This document shows positions 9,301-34,891 of a DNA stretch of 36,877 nucleotides, piece by piece. This DNA is from Basidiobolus ranarum. Taxonomy: Eukaryota. A program made the position numbers and the translations under genes. The notes below the pieces were generated by a model. That model was not told the origin of the DNA. It did not search any database and worked only from the letters and a program-made list of their open reading frames with translations. The stretch is from NCBI GenBank assembly GCA_040143965.1, contig JASJQH010006931.1, positions 1-36,877 on the forward strand. The letters run 5' to 3'. Every line of letters begins with the position of its first letter. Within the stretch, counting starts at the first letter, position 1.

Positions 9301-9689
9301 ATGATTCTGACTCTGAGATCAAAGCTCTACTAGAAGAACATTTAACCTCCCATCCTGCTCCAACCCAAGAAGGTGCCAGTGGAAGCGATATTAATTGTCA
9401 AATACCTCAAACCCTTGTCGTACAACCCGAAGGAAGCATGGAGGCAAGCTCGAAGGCTGAGACCGAAGATCGCATTGAGAATGTCACTAAACAGACCGAG
9501 AGCATCAAAATCTCTGAACCTATCAAAATTACACGTGTTGTATCTGCTTCGAATAACTCTAAACCTCTTGACTTAATAGATTCGGATCAATCTTGTAATA
9601 GCAACGAGTCAATTACCAAAATTAACGGAAATTCTCACGATGCTTCAACTAACTCTACAGCCATTTCTTCTCTGGATTTGGAAAATTGA
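6372..9689 (+). CDS. PPP4R1: HEAT-repeat protein phosphatase 4 regulatory subunit 1-like, many short introns
   Basis: 7-nt first coding exon ATGGCAG|GTGAGT giving MADLGL. HEAT motifs DPTFGVRK, DDIWQVRKSCA, DVSRWV, CAYNFPAVLLTLG, VRRTLAYSLHEVA, NWRIRE, DSVSRVRE and DPVVNVR match the PP4R1/PP2A-A pattern. TGA at 9687-9689. Confidence 0.85.
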
Positions 9690-10169
9690 CATTTCAAACA
9701 CCGTGAAACTTCATATTGACGATCATTTTTTATATACGCTAACAGTAATTCATTATGTATAACACCCCTACATATTCAACCATTTCCCTCACCTTCCCCT
9801 CACCTCACACCTTCGTTCGTTCCTTTTTCCTCATTTACCAAACTTCTTGTAGAATATCAAAGATTTGATCCACTAGCAGAAGACTCGAAATTAGGGTGGG
9901 AACTGCTCGATCCTTGTCCTTTTCGTCATAAATTTTGTTCACGTTCTGTGCAATACCTCTCCATTCTATTCTCTATCCTTTTTGTTAGATAAACATGATA
10001 AAAATGTTTCTTTCCCTACATTCATTGAATGATATATACATCTTACATTTGGCACTATTTCTTCGAACATTTCCAAATTTATCACTTTGATAGTCGAATG
10101 GAAACATGAATTCAATTATCATCATTGTCGCGATATTTCCAATGCATTGGATGAAGACGTACAAAATTG

Positions 10170-10986
10170 AGGTTCAGTTTCAAGTTGAGACGTAGGCTTA
10201 TGTGGGATAGCATTGTGATAAATGAATGAAGTAGTAGAAGTTCAAAGGTTGTTTTCAACTTCTTGGTGTCCATCAACGAAGAATCCCATATAGTCCACTG
10301 ATTTTAAGCTTATATCTCGTGGTTTAAATCTCCGATGGACTGCATTAGATCCAGTAAAGAATCTCAGAGAACTTGTGAGCGTCTTCTCTGTAGCAAAAGT
10401 ATCATCAGTAAACGAAATACCAGCAAGATAAACATACCACCATAAAGGACACAAGTACTTCATCCAAAAGATACTATTGTATCCTGGACGATAACCGTAG
10501 TAAACATTGTTCGAAGAAATGAAAATATTTCGAGTGACTAGGTATCCATTAGGTGCTAGAGGAACTAGATGTGCATCGACACTATGACCAATATACGCTA
10601 ATGGGAGTTCCGGATACGCTGAGTGCATATAATCGAGAATAGCTGGCAAGTCCAAAAATCTCCGATCCGTAATAATTGCTTTCTTGCCTTTAACTTCTAT
10701 TTACACAAATGGTGGCTTGCTTGTTTTGTACACTAGAAGGAGGAAATGAATCACCCACATCACAATAGTCCTAAGTGATAGCTACGCGTTTGGAACTAGT
10801 AGCCAAGTATTCAGGAAAAGGAGCGTAAAACTGTCGCAGTATTGCAGTGGCAGAGCTTATGACCACTGCTGTTTCAAGAACCAGATGCCCATTTCCGGGC
10901 TTAGTCTTAGGTGTAAATAGAGATGCGTGTATGGGAAAGCCATTAACAGCAGGTACAATAATGTCGAGGCCTTTCTTTGTATTCAT
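10170..10986 (-). pseudogene. Degraded copy of the alpha/beta hydrolase at 12698-13741
   Basis: TAC>TAG stop at 10771-10773; splice donor GT>GC; deletion of the intron 3' half and the start of exon 2; internal deletion; GHSVG>GHSVD; GHMGFF>DYMGFF; second stop at 10242; C-terminal AKL lost. Confidence 0.92.
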
Positions 10987-11629
10987 GACCATTTTTGATA
11001 GAGAAATGTAGCCAAGTCAACTATATATGGCTACCATCATGTTGTAAGGGGTGCATTGAAACATATTGGTTTTCCTAAACAGTCTGATTGGTCAAGACAT
11101 AATGAGTGCATACAAGCATTATTTGATATTAACATTAATGATGTTGCAACTAAAGTAAACATCACACCTTCTAGGCTGATATCTACTAGACTGCTTATGA
11201 ATACACGTTCGGTCGATCCAAGATAGATAAACAAATCCATAATAAATCGAGTAAATCAGTCTTGGTGAACTTATCCATATTAGTCGCTAAAATCCCATGA
11301 TTGAATCCAACTATTGGCCGGAGATTGTTTTCCATAGTTGTTAGGGATTGTAAATAACCACCAACGATTTCACTAATAACACTGATAGTTCCGATTCGAG
11401 ATTGATTCGAGATTGAAAGCTTGGATTGATTTTTTAATTCCAAGAACGAGGCTTGGTGTACGTGAAAGCCTTCCAAATATTGACAGATAATCCCAAAGAT
11501 GGACCGATTTAAAAAAAACTCCCTTCGAAAAAGACGCTACTATCATGAAGATTGGGGCAAGCAAAAGATATATATTGGAGACAACGTCTGTATCAGATAC
11601 CTTGCTACTTTTTGAACCCATTATTCAAC

Positions 11630-12303
11630 ATGAACCGCCTATTGCAGATCGTTTTAAGCCTCTTATTAGCCTTCAATTTTGTCGCTGCTAACATCGAAAT
11701 CACCTTTCCAGTTGATCATGAATATCGAGCTGGAGTCCAATACCCCATCACTTGGTCAGTACATTAATATTCACTACAGACAACTAACTTGAACTAACCG
11801 AGTGAGCTTTTAGGAAGGAAATTGGTGGCGCACCTACTCCCGCACTTTTCACTATTAACCTTGTTTACGGAAAAGAAACTGACCTCCAAGTCCAAAGTCT
11901 TATTGTCCAAAACACTGATTCTAAGACTGGTATTTATTTATGGTATATCCTCCCCTCTACTAGACCTAGTACCGAGTATGCCATCGAAATTACAAATGGT
12001 CAAGATTATTGGTACAGCCATTACTTTACTATTTCGAACCCTGGCCAGCCTAGTTTGTCCTCAATTCCTAACCCAGCCCCAACTTCATCTACCTCTGACG
12101 CTAAGGAAGCTTCCGATAAAAAGAATCACCAAGACAGTGATAGCCAGAACAACAGCACTACTTCAAGCAGCACTACTTCAAGCAGCACTGCCTCAAGCAT
12201 CGCTACCTCTGTCAAGAAATCCTCAGATAAAAAGAGTAATGGTTTCTTGGTTAACGCAGGGTTTATTGGTGTTGTTGGCGTGATTACATCTCTCTTCATG
12301 TAA
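11630..12303 (+). CDS. GPI-anchored Ser/Thr-rich cell-wall protein, Kre9/KNH-like N-terminal domain (copy A, 204 aa)
   Basis: Exons 11630-11754 and 11814-12303. Signal peptide; AGVQYPITW...YAIEI...YSHYFTI domain; S/T stalk; KSNG followed by a hydrophobic C-terminal tail. Confidence 0.87.
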
Positions 12304-12697
12304 AAGACCTAAGATTGTCCAATTTAAATAATGATCATTTTTTATATACGCTAACCGTAATTCATTAAGTACCACGCCTTTACATATTCAAGTGTATTCT
12401 CCTCTTTCCTTTAACTCTCCCTTCTTTACCCTTCATTTACTGAACTTCCTATAGAATATCAAAGATTTGTTCCACTAGAAGTATACTTAAAAATAGAGTG
12501 GAAGCTGCTCATTCCATATCCTTTTTGTTAAATAAATATTAAAAACCTGACTCTTTTCATTCAATACTATACACCGAGTTTAGCCCAAGGGTACATGATT
12601 TTCTCTAAAAACCCCGCTACTATTATATTTCGATGGTGCTAATGTTGGTGGTATAGAAGTTTTTATATCAAAGTCGTAATAATCCCAAAGTATTGGA

Positions 12698-13741
12698 TCA
12701 AAGTTTAGCTTGAAGCTGAGATGTAGGTTTAGGCGGAATTACATTATTACATATAAATTGAATAACAGGGGCCCAAAGGTTATTTCTAATTTCTTGGTAT
12801 CTGCCAAAGAAGAATCCCATATGGCCAACTGAATTCAAGCCTATATCTTGTGGTTTGAATCTCCAATGAACGACATCAGATCCAGTAAAGAATTCCAGCA
12901 AACTTGTGAATGCCTTCTCTGTAGCATAAGCATCATCAGTAAACGAAATACCCAAGATAGGCTTACGGAAACGATCGAATTTCTCTTTCCATTCAGGGTT
13001 TACATCGCAGAAATACCTGGGATGCTCCGACCAAGTAGACCATTCCTTCATAACTCCTATAGGTAAATCCTCCATTCCTCCATACTTTTTACCTGGAAAA
13101 TAACCATACCACCGCATAAGTAAAGGACTCATGTACTTCATCTGAAAGATACTCTTATATCCTGGACGATATCCGTAGTAAGCATTGTTCGAAGAAATGA
13201 AAATATTTCGAGTGACTAGGTGTCCATTAGGTGCTAGAGGAACCAAGTGTGCACCGACACTATGGCCAATATATGCTAACGGGAGTTCCGGATACGCTGA
13301 ATGCATATAATCGAGAATAGCAGGCAAGTCCAAAAATCCCCAATCCGTAATAGTTGCTTCAAAGTCGACGAGGGGGTGTTGCTTACTTCAGGAATAAATA
13401 GAGATAGTCAAACATAATTGGTGAGTATGGTTGTGTTCTTGCCTTTAACTTCTATTTGCAAAAACAAAGGCTTACTTGTTTTGTACACTAGAGGGAGGAA
13501 ATGAATCACCCACACCACGATAGTCGTAAGTGATAACTGCACATTTGAAACTAGTAGCCAAGTATTCGGCAAAAGGAGCGTAGAACTGTCGCAGTACTGC
13601 AGTGGCAGAGCTTATGACCACTGCTGTTTCAATAACCGGACGCTCACTTCCAGGCTCAATCTCAGGTGTAAATAGGGTAGCGTGCAAGGGGAAGCCGTCA
13701 ACAGCAGGTATAACAATGTCGAGGCCTTTCTTCGTATCCAT
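12698..13741 (-). CDS. Bacterial-type alpha/beta-fold serine hydrolase (COG4757-like), 317 aa, C-terminal PTS1 -AKL
   Basis: Exons 13741-13476 and 13385-12698. Motifs YDYRGVGDS, DWGFLDLPA, GHSVG nucleophile elbow, EDLPIGVMKEW, FTDD and GHMGFF. Ends CAA GCT AAA CTT TGA. Confidence 0.9.
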
Positions 13742-14381
13742 GACTATTTTTGATAGAGAAATGTAGCCAAGTCAACTATATATGGCTACCATCATGTTGT
13801 AAGGGGTGCATTGAAACATATTGGTCATCCTAAACTGGTTGATTGGTCAAGACAGAATGAGTGCATACAAGCATTATTAAGAATTCACATGAATAGCATA
13901 CAAATGTTACCAAGCATTATTAAGATTATTTGCGCGGTTATGAAATTAGTAAACTAGACCTAATTACCACTTACTAAACTACGAGATTTCTTCTCTGTGA
14001 TTCTAGTAAGATAAACAAATCTTTCACAAATCGAGAAAATCGGTTTTGGTGAAAAACTAGTAATCAGACCCAGTTATTCAGACCCAGTTATTGGCTACTA
14101 ATGACAGTAATGCTTTCGAATAGGTGTTTAGAAATATTTCTGATTCGAGATTGAAAGCTTGGATTGATTTTTTAATTCCAAGAGCGAGGCTTGGTGTATG
14201 TGAAAGCCTTCCCAATGTTGACAGATAATTCCAAAGATGGAATCCTACTTTGATGGAATTTCCTTGAACCGATTTGAAAAAAATCCCTCGAAAAAGTCGA
14301 AGATTAGAGTGGAGAAAAGATATATATTGGAGACAATTGCTACATCAGATTCTTTTCAATTATTTGGACTCATTGTTCAAT

Positions 14382-15021
14382 ATGAATCGCCTGTTGCTGA
14401 TCGTTTTAGGCTTTGCTTTGGCCTTCAATCTTGTTGCCGCTAACTTCGAAGTTGACTCACTTGACAAAAAAATCTCAGCAGGATCTACTTACATTATCAC
14501 TTGGTCAGTACATCAACATTCACTATAGACAATTTACCTCAACTAACGCGTGAGTTTCTAGGACGGAAACTGGTGGTACACCTGCTACTCCCGAACTTCT
14601 CAATATCAACCTTCTGTATGGACCATCAGCCAAACTCCAGCTAAAACAACCTATCATCCAAGGTATTCCTTCTAAACGGGGCAGGTATCCGTGGTGGATT
14701 TCATCCAAAATGAACCCTAGTTCTCAATATGTTATCGAAATTGGAAATGAAACATTTCATCAGTACAGTCATTACTTCACCATTACAAACCCAAATATGC
14801 CTAGTTTGAGTCCATATAATAGCTCAGCATCAGCCCCAACTTCCTCTTCATCTACCTCTGACGCTAAGGAAACTTCCGATAAAAAGAATCACCACGACAG
14901 TGATAACCAGAACAACAACACTACATCTGTCCAGAAATCCTCGGATAACAAGAGTAACGGTTTCTTGGTTAGCGCTGGATTCATCGGTGTTGTTGGTGTG
15001 ATTACATCTCTCTTCATGTAG
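14382..15021 (+). CDS. GPI-anchored Ser/Thr-rich cell-wall protein, Kre9/KNH-like N-terminal domain (copy B, 193 aa)
   Basis: Exons 14382-14503 and 14562-15021. Same intron position and architecture as copy A; open frame throughout. Confidence 0.87.
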
Positions 15022-15313
15022 AGGGCCTAAATATTCCAATTAGATGTTACATCTTCCTGTAAAAGATCTCATAATAAATATCCTCATTGATTATTCAGTA
15101 TAAGTCAATCTGAAGACGAACATCATTAACTGTCCCAATTCGGAACCTATCTTAAACTGTCTTTTTGCTTATCGTAGATAGTAGATAGTTAGAGTACGTA
15201 TGTAGCGCGTTTCGTTCGACCTGATTATGCCAATCCAAACATTTGATACATAATCCCAGCATTGCAGAAACACGTGCCTAAACACAACATTAGTTTCGCT
15301 TTTCTTAAGTCAG

Positions 15314-15378: not shown

Positions 15379-15651
15379 ATGAAATTCACACTCATCCTAG
15401 TCGCTTGCGTTTCTCTTTCTCAAGCTGGCCTTCTCAAAAGTATTGGTCTCGATGGAGAAGGTTCTATTGCTAATGGACACAGTGAGGTTGCAAACCAACG
15501 GGGTAATTCACCTATCACCCTGGACACCTCTAGACCAAATGTTGATACCAACGAAGATCAATCTCAAACAATTGATTGTGGTGAAGTGACCAATTTGGAC
15601 CTTCAGGTACTTGGGGTTCCTATAAAAGCTTGCGGATCTTCGGTAAATTAG
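15379..15651 (+). CDS. Small secreted protein (90 aa, 2 Cys in the mature part), possibly rodlin/chaplin-like
   Basis: Intronless ORF with signal peptide MKFTLILVACVSLSQA, an upstream TATA and a downstream AATAAA (about 15752). Confidence 0.8.
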   Translation: MKFTLILVACVSLSQAGLLKSIGLDGEGSIANGHSEVANQRGNSPITLDTSRPNVDTNEDQSQTIDCGEVTNLDLQVLGVPIKACGSSVN

Positions 15652-33102: not shown

Positions 33103-34462
33103 ATGAGCGCGTACTTTGGTTTTGACGACAAGAAGTTTCATTTTGTAGCTGACATAGACAATAATATTCTCGAGAGAGTAGATGCTGCTTTAGAACTCAT
33201 AGAAAAGAAATACGCCCAATTCGAAGAAACTGGCAGGAAACGTGTGGACGATACAATTAAACGGATAGAGGCCAAGTACAATGAGTTGGAAAGTATCTCT
33301 TTAGCCGAGAAGGTAGACGCAGTCATCAACATCATAGAGGAGAAATGTTTTGAGAAGTGTGTAAACTTTGGGGATTTTTCTCGAAAAACCTTGGAAGATA
33401 CTATCCGTCATATAGAAGAAAGATACGACGAGTTTGAGAAGATTTCTCTACGGGATAGGGTCTTCGATGCTATAAAACATCTTGAAGAGCTCACTCCTGA
33501 GCACTTCATCAAAACCGTCGATTGTTCCGTGGACTATACAGCAGAGGTTACCAAAGCAGCCTTCTATGGAGCTAAACGTCTTTTAAACTATGATGAGCTT
33601 CCTTCACCCTGGCAAGATAACGAATATGTCACTTCAGGGTATGCACCATTTATATAGTGTGTGTCTTGTAATTGATTCTAATGCTCATATTCTTGATAGG
33701 TACCGTTTCCTCTCATCCAAGGCGCAATGCCTTCTGAGTATGCTTCAGATTCACAACCAGACAGGAAATATCTGGTCACATCTGATCGGGGTATTTTTGT
33801 TTAGTTGGCTTGGATACAATACTTTTCAGACACATCTACTGGATGGCTCGTACTTTGATAAACTAGTATTCTTTGTCTTCTTTGCTGCTGCGGCCAAGTG
33901 TCTAATTTGCAGTACTTTGTTCCACACTTTCCAATGTCACTCACATCTGAGTGTTATGCGATGCTCCACCGTGCTAGACTACGTTGGGATTTCACTTCTC
34001 ATTATGGCGTCGGTTCTTGTTGTTGAATATTATGGATTCTACTGTCATCCATTTCTGCGCAACCTCTATACAACGGCTACAGTGACGTTGGGGGTCACCG
34101 GGGTAATAATACCTTGGTTCCGGTGGTTTGATGAGAAAGATTATCGGATCGTTCGTATCATGATATTCTTGCTTATGGGTGCCACTGGGATCGTGCCTTT
34201 TATTCACCTGGTTATGCTCAACGGTTGGGCTGACACTTCCATCTTCATTTACAAATTTGGCCAGTCGCTTAGCTTCTATGCTCTAGGTACTTACCTATAT
34301 GCTAACCATTACCCTGAAAGGCTTTTGCCAGGTGTGTTTGATATCTGGGGTCATTCACATCAAGTCTGGCATCTGTGTGTCATGGGTGGGATTTATTATC
34401 ACTACAAATTCGCCTTAAGTTTTTACCAAAGTAGAGGTAGTTATGGGTGTGGCGGCTACTGA
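33103..34462 (+). CDS. PAQR/Izh (adiponectin-receptor, hemolysin III family) protein, 432 aa, with a repetitive helical N-terminus
   Basis: Exons 33103-33638 and 33700-34462. LPSPWQDNEYVTSGYR, HNQTGNIWSH, STLFH, DYVGI, PERLLPGVFDIWGHSHQVWH (Zn-site His residues present). Confidence 0.93.
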
Positions 34463-34620
34463 ATCCTCTCTTTTTTAAATCAGACTTCATAGATCTCATA
34501 TATAACCTTCGATGAGCCATATTAATCATCACCCACCTTTGTTTGCTATCAACAATCGTAATAAACCAAATTAATCATCTTTCCATCTTTCCATATACTT
34601 GCAACTGACTAATTGAACTA

Positions 34621-34725
34621 CTATTCATGACTCTAAACTTAACCCTAACCCTACTTCTATTCATGACTCCAAACTTAACCCTACTTCTATTCATGACTCC
34701 AAACTTAACCCTACTTCTATTCATG
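34621..34725. repeat. 30-bp minisatellite (ctattcatgactccaaacttaaccctactt), about 3.3 copies
   Basis: Units start at 34621 (with an extra TAACCC), 34657 and 34687, with a partial unit at 34717. Confidence 0.93.
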
Positions 34726-34891
34726 TTAATGTATGCTAACTGACAAAATCAAATGGTTAAATGCTAACCCAATTAAATTATGTTACGTCTGAGACACCCA
34801 TAAATCATCCAAATTTACCTGATCTCTACTTAGTCAACTACTCTTGTGCTAAACACACCTTTGAGCTCTACCTGTTTCTGTTTTTTAAAGC

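Follow-up and report, generated by a model that had tools for sequence, protein, structure and literature searches.

Uneven divergence along a tandem pair of Kre9/KNH-domain genes in Basidiobolus ranarum

Two neighbouring genes of Basidiobolus ranarum, both on the forward strand of contig JASJQH010006931.1 (36,877 bp, analysed whole and called the window below), encode small proteins that are closely alike in a C-terminal stalk and glycosylphosphatidylinositol (GPI)-type tail, and about half identical in the immunoglobulin (Ig)-like domain, or head, preceding them. A first-pass annotation, made from the sequence by eye, saw inverted conservation here, and proposed diversifying selection on a surface-displayed domain or replacement of that domain by gene conversion from another paralog. 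The question raised by the locus is whether selection on the head accounts for the contrast between the head and its surroundings. The comparisons below indicate that differences in age account for most of the contrast, rather than selection acting on the head; the pattern is ordinary for duplicated genes and does not mark the head as hypervariable. Both genes belong to a known family, and the pattern is of a known kind, partial concerted evolution.

Divergence along the duplicated unit

Direct-repeat families (spacing 2531–2784 bp) and global alignment define a tandem unit of ~2.7 kb present in two copies, U1 and U2 (Table 1). In each, a GPI gene is transcribed divergently from an alpha/beta-hydrolase gene that lies on the minus strand. 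The duplication of the GPI genes recognised in the first-pass annotation is real, but what was duplicated is this whole unit, hydrolase gene included.

Alignment reproduced the identities first read off by hand. The whole Ig-like domain is identical between copies at 47 of 97 positions and its exon-2 part at 38 of 76 (39 of 78, or about 50%, in the first-pass annotation), while the stalk and GPI-type tail, described as nearly identical, match at 27/33 aligned residues and 22/23 residues, respectively. Only the stalk of copy 1 carries an extra 15 Ser/Thr-rich residues, derived from a 15-nt tandem repeat, and the difference in stalk length arises by slippage at this repeat. The intron, put at roughly 80% identity, matches at 48/58 positions (83%; Kimura two-parameter distance, K2P, 0.20), with the first 22 nt almost identical, and lies between more diverged exons (K2P 0.41 and 0.50). 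Flanking blocks identical over 40–80 bp had also been noted, and the longest exact non-coding runs are of 80 bp (10991–11070 = 13746–13825) and 43 bp (11403–11445 = 14141–14183). The broader claim that the non-coding DNA is conserved holds for such runs and blocks, but over ~40% of the unit, a share that takes in most intergenic DNA, divergence equals or exceeds that of the domain (K2P 0.37–0.71, with values of 0.5–0.7 in much of the non-coding DNA), as it does over large parts of the 3′ flank (K2P in the same range).

Synonymous (dS) and nonsynonymous (dN) divergence between the two copies, calculated by region (Nei-Gojobori), differs sharply along the unit. The head has dS 0.81 (32.0 of 64.7 synonymous sites) and dN 0.45, a ratio of 0.55; corresponding dS and dN values are 0.70 and 0.15 for the signal peptide, 0.61 and 0.63 for the linker, 0.11 (2 of 19 synonymous sites) and 0.08 for the stalk (33 codons), 0.50 and 0.02 for the GPI tail, and 0.21 (29 of 158.2 synonymous sites) and 0.117 for the hydrolase pair (231 codons). 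Silent divergence in the head is thus ~7 times that of the stalk (Fisher p 0.003) and ~4 times that of the hydrolase pair. In the stalk, dN is near dS and both are low, which suggests recent copying, while dN of 0.02 against dS of 0.50 in the GPI tail points to purifying selection.

Heterogeneity of divergence along the unit far exceeds chance. Over 2,412 aligned sites, a two-state hidden Markov model (HMM), with mismatch levels of 12% and 48%, gave a Bayesian information criterion of 2470.8 against 2675.7 for one state (~205 units). Low-divergence tracts (Table 1) cover much of the hydrolase gene and its upstream DNA, an intergenic block, and the stalk plus GPI tail; the last begins at a sharp break at ~12081, where mismatch drops from 40–48% to 10%. 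Transitions outnumber transversions 79:26 in the hydrolase tract and are barely in excess in the head (51:48), as would suit a young tract and a saturated segment, respectively. No strong asymmetry of the sort left by directional mutation of duplicated DNA resembling repeat-induced point mutation was seen (A/T in U1 faces G/C in U2 at 52 sites, and the converse holds at 37). Parts of one 2.7-kb unit therefore appear, from the sequence comparison, to differ in age.

Origin of the mosaic

We consider it reasonably probable that an old tandem duplication was followed by patchy non-allelic gene conversion or unequal crossing-over, with the targeting signals under purifying selection and the head under relaxed constraint. 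The 2.7-kb unit, including its hydrolase gene, would have been duplicated long ago, to judge by a background silent divergence of ~0.5–0.8. Later non-allelic gene conversion or unequal crossing-over would have re-homogenised separate tracts: the hydrolase gene with its core promoter, a 100-bp block of the GPI promoter, the stalk and perhaps the intron region. Purifying selection would have preserved the cleaved targeting signals, the GPI tail above all, and the Ig-like head would retain the old divergence under relaxed constraint (dN/dS ~0.55), its fold core intact. Gene conversion, as suggested in the first-pass annotation, is probably involved, but on the simplest reading it would have worked the other way: flanks, stalk and hydrolase would have been homogenised while the head kept its old divergence, and no donor paralog is present among the four known members of the subfamily (see below).

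The hydrolase pair is central to this explanation. The U1 copy is disabled several times over, with two in-frame stop codons, a change in the catalytic nucleophile motif (GHSVG to GHSVD), deletion of the intron-exon 2 junction and deletion of ~50 codons. Since this copy is dead, its 88% identity to U2 (879 sites) cannot be due to constraint. In a three-way comparison with the Basidiobolus meristosporus ortholog (218 sites), U1 has 37 unique residues, U2 has 3 and B. meristosporus has 37; the contrast of 3 with 37 places the copying of the hydrolase well after the two species separated. The tract also crosses the boundary between coding and non-coding DNA unbroken, which was counted in favour of conversion.

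It is very improbable, in our estimation, that there was no conversion and that purifying selection in old duplicates preserved the stalk, intron, promoter blocks and hydrolase region alike. The GPI tail is clearly constrained, and the TATA-containing blocks upstream of both genes, including the 80-bp run and a 22-bp exact run (11563–11584), are plausible regulatory elements. However, constraint does not account for a multiply disabled hydrolase gene at dS 0.21 from its intact partner, nor for a stalk that is low in dS as well as dN. Locally, constraint may have contributed. Although one hydrolase copy is dead, the 80-bp run immediately precedes the start codon in both and includes a TATA-like box (minus strand). 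A perfect run of this length would be unlikely at the 12% divergence of its tract; it reflects either a very recent micro-conversion or an element still working in both units, e.g. for the divergent GPI genes. The likeness of the introns (11755–11813 and 14504–14561) may likewise be due to constraint on a near-minimal intron or to a small conversion tract. Rfam searches (no matches) and a tRNA scan (no genes) of the whole window do not explain the conserved non-coding blocks.

The age of the heads was examined through their relatives. An exhaustive profile search gave 265 matches at E 0.001 or better, and word-based protein searches gave two relatives, then five matches at E 1e-5 or better. 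The only close single-domain relatives are P0007, a third B. ranarum paralog (unlinked, and partial on a 9.6-kb contig), and P0008, a B. meristosporus protein presumed to be the ortholog of P0007 (heads identical at 63/98 positions). Together with the two window proteins these make a subfamily of four members in 5.8 billion proteins. The copy 1 head matches that of P0007 at 47/98 positions and is therefore as distant from it as from copy 2, and grouping of copy 1 with P0007 and P0008 was not rejected by the approximately unbiased test (p 0.06). Comparable head identities and this test result suggest that the split between the tandem heads is deep.

Different ages within the unit could also have arisen the other way round, by recent duplication of the whole unit, at about the age of the hydrolase pair (dS 0.2), after which ectopic conversion, with a distant paralog as donor, would have replaced the head, exon 1 and proximal promoter in one of the copies. 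The low dS of hydrolase and stalk and the sharp break at ~12081 would fit such a swap, and a donor could be missing from the fragmented B. ranarum assembly, in which P0007 itself is incomplete. We nevertheless regard it as distinctly improbable: neither head is closer than 48% to another of the four subfamily members, the swap would have to extend to each of six or more discrete high-divergence segments, of which several are non-coding, and the silent divergence of the GPI tail and signal peptide (0.50 and 0.70) is also at the old level.

Old duplication with later homogenisation, the reading preferred here, has known counterparts. The Candida ALS genes and trypanosome VSG genes, with conserved C-terminal and 3′ parts, are examples of partial concerted evolution. 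The Basidiobolus locus resembles tandem paralogs that evolve in this way through non-allelic gene conversion, in that young and old segments appear side by side within one duplicated unit and a single domain stays distinct. It differs from other cases in having two copies only, tracts of ~100–900 bp and one converted partner that is a pseudogene, and nothing points to a programmed switching system here.

Selection on the head

Diversifying selection would be expected to give dN/dS >1 in the domain with dS no higher there than elsewhere; observed were a ratio of 0.55 and a head dS of 0.81, against 0.11 in the stalk and 0.21 in the hydrolase pair. Elevated dS in the domain is the result that the first-pass annotation had itself named as telling against selection, and its proposal of diversifying selection on a displayed domain is not borne out. 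The variable residues are scattered, with 32/58 strand and 19/40 loop positions differing (strands from the AlphaFold2 model; p 0.54) and hence no enrichment in loops, and they concentrate at columns that are variable in the family as a whole (Mann-Whitney p 3.5e-4), with differences at 6 of 23 strongly conserved columns and 46 of the 75 others.

Several observations nevertheless weigh against an explanation by age, or limit it. The proportion of fourfold sites that differ is 5/17 in the head, 2/11 in the stalk and 3/12 in the tail, a weak contrast from small counts. In the maximum-likelihood tree the tandem copies are sister to each other, moderately supported (86/93), and the terminal branches are 0.46 and 0.51 for these copies, 0.27 for P0007 and 0.24 for P0008. 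Measured from the node shared with P0007 and P0008, the path to the tandem copies is about twice as long (0.84 vs 0.41), such that the divergence of the heads is partly a matter of rate rather than age. Protein database searches found no B. meristosporus ortholog of the tandem pair by which the duplication could be dated and, as there are only two DNA sequences, conversion and local constraint are not cleanly separable outside the pseudogene tract. Some positions invariant in the family have changed, with P27 lost in copy 2 and the proline of the 'W.IP' motif replaced in both copies. Finally, the copy 2 head (14562–14808) is basic, with an isoelectric point of 8.19, second highest of 54 family members (rank 53 of 54), against 4.67 in copy 1 and 4–5 in most others; a basic head would fit an adaptive shift.

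These last features also belong to an account in which diversifying or directional selection drives the heads apart and removes homogenising conversions there, while promoter, stalk and anchor are free to homogenise. Besides the doubled branch length of the window lineage, the altered family-conserved positions in both heads and the opposite charge of the two, this account can draw on a dN/dS (0.55) that is high by the standards of folded domains. We still regard this account as unlikely, although it retains some plausibility, because the ratio is below 1 and selection on a protein does not explain a dS 4–7 times that of neighbouring segments; in addition, the differences follow general family variability without favouring loops, and charge-changing substitutions between the heads (11 one way, 7 the other) show no clear direction. 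Branch length, changed conserved positions and the isoelectric point of copy 2 are compatible with relaxed constraint, or with a shift in function once the gene had been duplicated; positive selection is not demonstrated.

A more speculative scheme, which we would call doubtful, combines both processes in a two-head display cassette. Conversion would keep promoter blocks, stalk and anchor uniform, so that both proteins are expressed and presented alike, while selection would hold the acidic head and the unusually basic one apart, so that each could serve its own ligands or partners, whether on the wall or within the host animal's gut, with homogenisation tolerated everywhere but in the head.

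Protein family, neighbouring features and significance

The two tandem genes encode a predicted secreted Ig-like Kre9/KNH head, a disordered Ser/Thr-rich stalk and a GPI-attachment-type tail. Full-length proteins match PF10342 (Kre9/KNH N-terminal Ig-like domain) with 45.2 bits for copy 2 (P0001) and 36.6 bits for copy 1 (P0002), against a Pfam cut-off of 24.6, and exon 2 alone gives 32.0 and 27.6 bits, respectively. This is the sole Pfam family found in the full-length GPI proteins at E 0.01 or better, with no second, C-terminal Kre9 domain. In the AlphaFold2 model of copy 1 (54-sequence alignment), residues 21–125 form a nine-strand beta-sandwich with predicted local distance difference test (pLDDT) scores >90, residues 2–14 form a helix and the stalk is disordered (pLDDT ~46–54 for residues 141–204). 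Foldseek searches against the Protein Data Bank returned generic Ig domains alone (best E 4e-4, others weaker, TM-scores low). Ser and Thr make up 0.46 of the stalk in copy 1 and 0.38 in copy 2. By sequence pattern, the predicted signal peptide consists of MNR, a hydrophobic run and VAA, with cleavage before N, and the C terminus of the GPI proteins reads ...KSNG-FLVNAG-FIGVVGVITSLFM, which we take to be a GPI-attachment signal of small omega residues, spacer and hydrophobic tail. Both proteins are thus predicted to be secreted, GPI-anchored and displayed at the surface.

Both genes appear to follow the SGP1-type architecture known from wall and membrane proteins of fungi. Ustilaginoidea virens SGP1 has the layout predicted for the pair, of signal peptide, single Kre9/KNH Ig-like domain, Ser/Thr-rich stalk and C-terminal GPI-type tail (PMC8079714); the order of conservation for stalk and tail is reversed in the Basidiobolus pair. 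PF10342 is among the most numerous GPI-anchored families reported from zygomycete secretomes, with 997 proteins (PMC9391592). AGL surface proteins of arbuscular mycorrhizal fungi were found by degenerate PCR on conserved endoplasmic reticulum and GPI signals around highly variable mature regions, and resemble the pair in having cleaved targeting signals better conserved than the mature protein; unlike it, they are disordered, rich in proline and glycine, and lack a folded Kre9/KNH head (PMC8786786).

The pair also shares the N-terminal Kre9_KNH Ig-like domain with Saccharomyces Kre9/Knh1, which act in beta-1,6-glucan synthesis, but ends in a stalk and GPI-type tail, with no second Kre9 domain found. 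A C-terminal Kre9 domain is a defining feature of Kre9 and Knh1.

Table 1 Features of the tandem locus in the B. ranarum window
Feature	Position	Strand	Basis
Unit U1: 3′ flank, hydrolase pseudogene, divergent promoter, GPI gene copy 1	9721–12332		Direct repeats, global unit alignment
Alpha/beta-hydrolase pseudogene of U1	10172–10990	−	Codon alignment to U2 coding sequence
Largest low-divergence tract (105 mismatches/879 sites); crosses the hydrolase start codon into non-coding DNA and contains the 80-bp run	10245–11123 (U2: 12776–13878)		HMM, exact runs
Conserved intergenic block (5 mismatches/102 sites), ~130–230 bp upstream of the GPI start codons	11404–11505 (U2: 14142–14245)		Direct repeats, HMM, exact runs
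GPI gene copy 1 (K7432_002169, P0002, 204 aa): exon 1 11630–11754, 59-nt intron 11755–11813, exon 2 11814–12303; signal peptide 11630–11689, Ig-like Kre9_KNH domain to 12042, linker, stalk from ~12088, GPI-type tail 12232–12300	11630–12303	+	Splice model, Pfam, AlphaFold2
Low-divergence 3′ tract (19 mismatches/187 sites): stalk and GPI tail	12081–12312 (U2: 14832–15030)	+	dN/dS, HMM
15-nt tandem repeat (3.1–3.8 copies), source of the copy 1 stalk insertion	12153–12209	+	Tandem Repeats Finder, protein alignment
Unit U2: 3′ flank, intact hydrolase gene, divergent promoter, GPI gene copy 2	12333–15030		Direct repeats, global unit alignment; similarity stops at ~15030
Intact alpha/beta-hydrolase gene (K7432_002170, P0153, 317 aa): exon 1 13741–13476, intron 13475–13386, exon 2 13385–12698	12698–13741	−	Splice model gives P0153 exactly
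GPI gene copy 2 (K7432_002171, P0001, 193 aa): exon 1 14382–14503, 58-nt intron 14504–14561, exon 2 14562–15021; layout as copy 1	14382–15021	+	Splice model, Pfam

Splice models of both GPI genes give the deposited proteins exactly. An assembly artefact or mis-joined alleles were rejected, as the units are 12–48% different, their outer flanks are unique and their lesions distinct. The intact hydrolase matches Pfam Abhydrolase_6 and Abhydrolase_1 and is 80% identical to its B. meristosporus ortholog; its nearest relatives outside Basidiobolus are Mortierellaceae proteins (34–36% identity) and a bacterial alpha/beta hydrolase (31%). The U1 remnant returned only the unnamed 128-aa product of an open reading frame (ORF; P0155) and no named NCBI protein. 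Directly downstream of GPI gene copy 2, an ORF at 15379–15651 (+) has a signal-peptide-like N terminus (MKFTLILVACVSLSQAG...) and no Pfam match, and may encode a further secreted protein near the locus. On the other side, the gene preceding U1 ends at 9689. Elsewhere in the window, a direct repeat of 30–36 nt in three copies (34617–34741) lies just past an ORF related to HlyIII (33587–34462).

The locus shows in a concrete case how a variable head on a conserved stalk can be mistaken for the product of diversifying selection when the duplicated unit is built of segments that differ in age. It opens no new kind of system. Basidiobolus is a gut-associated fungus and occasional opportunist, and the two putative surface proteins of this locus, restricted to the lineage and differing in their heads (that of copy 2 is unusually basic), are candidates for ordinary localisation and knock-out studies.

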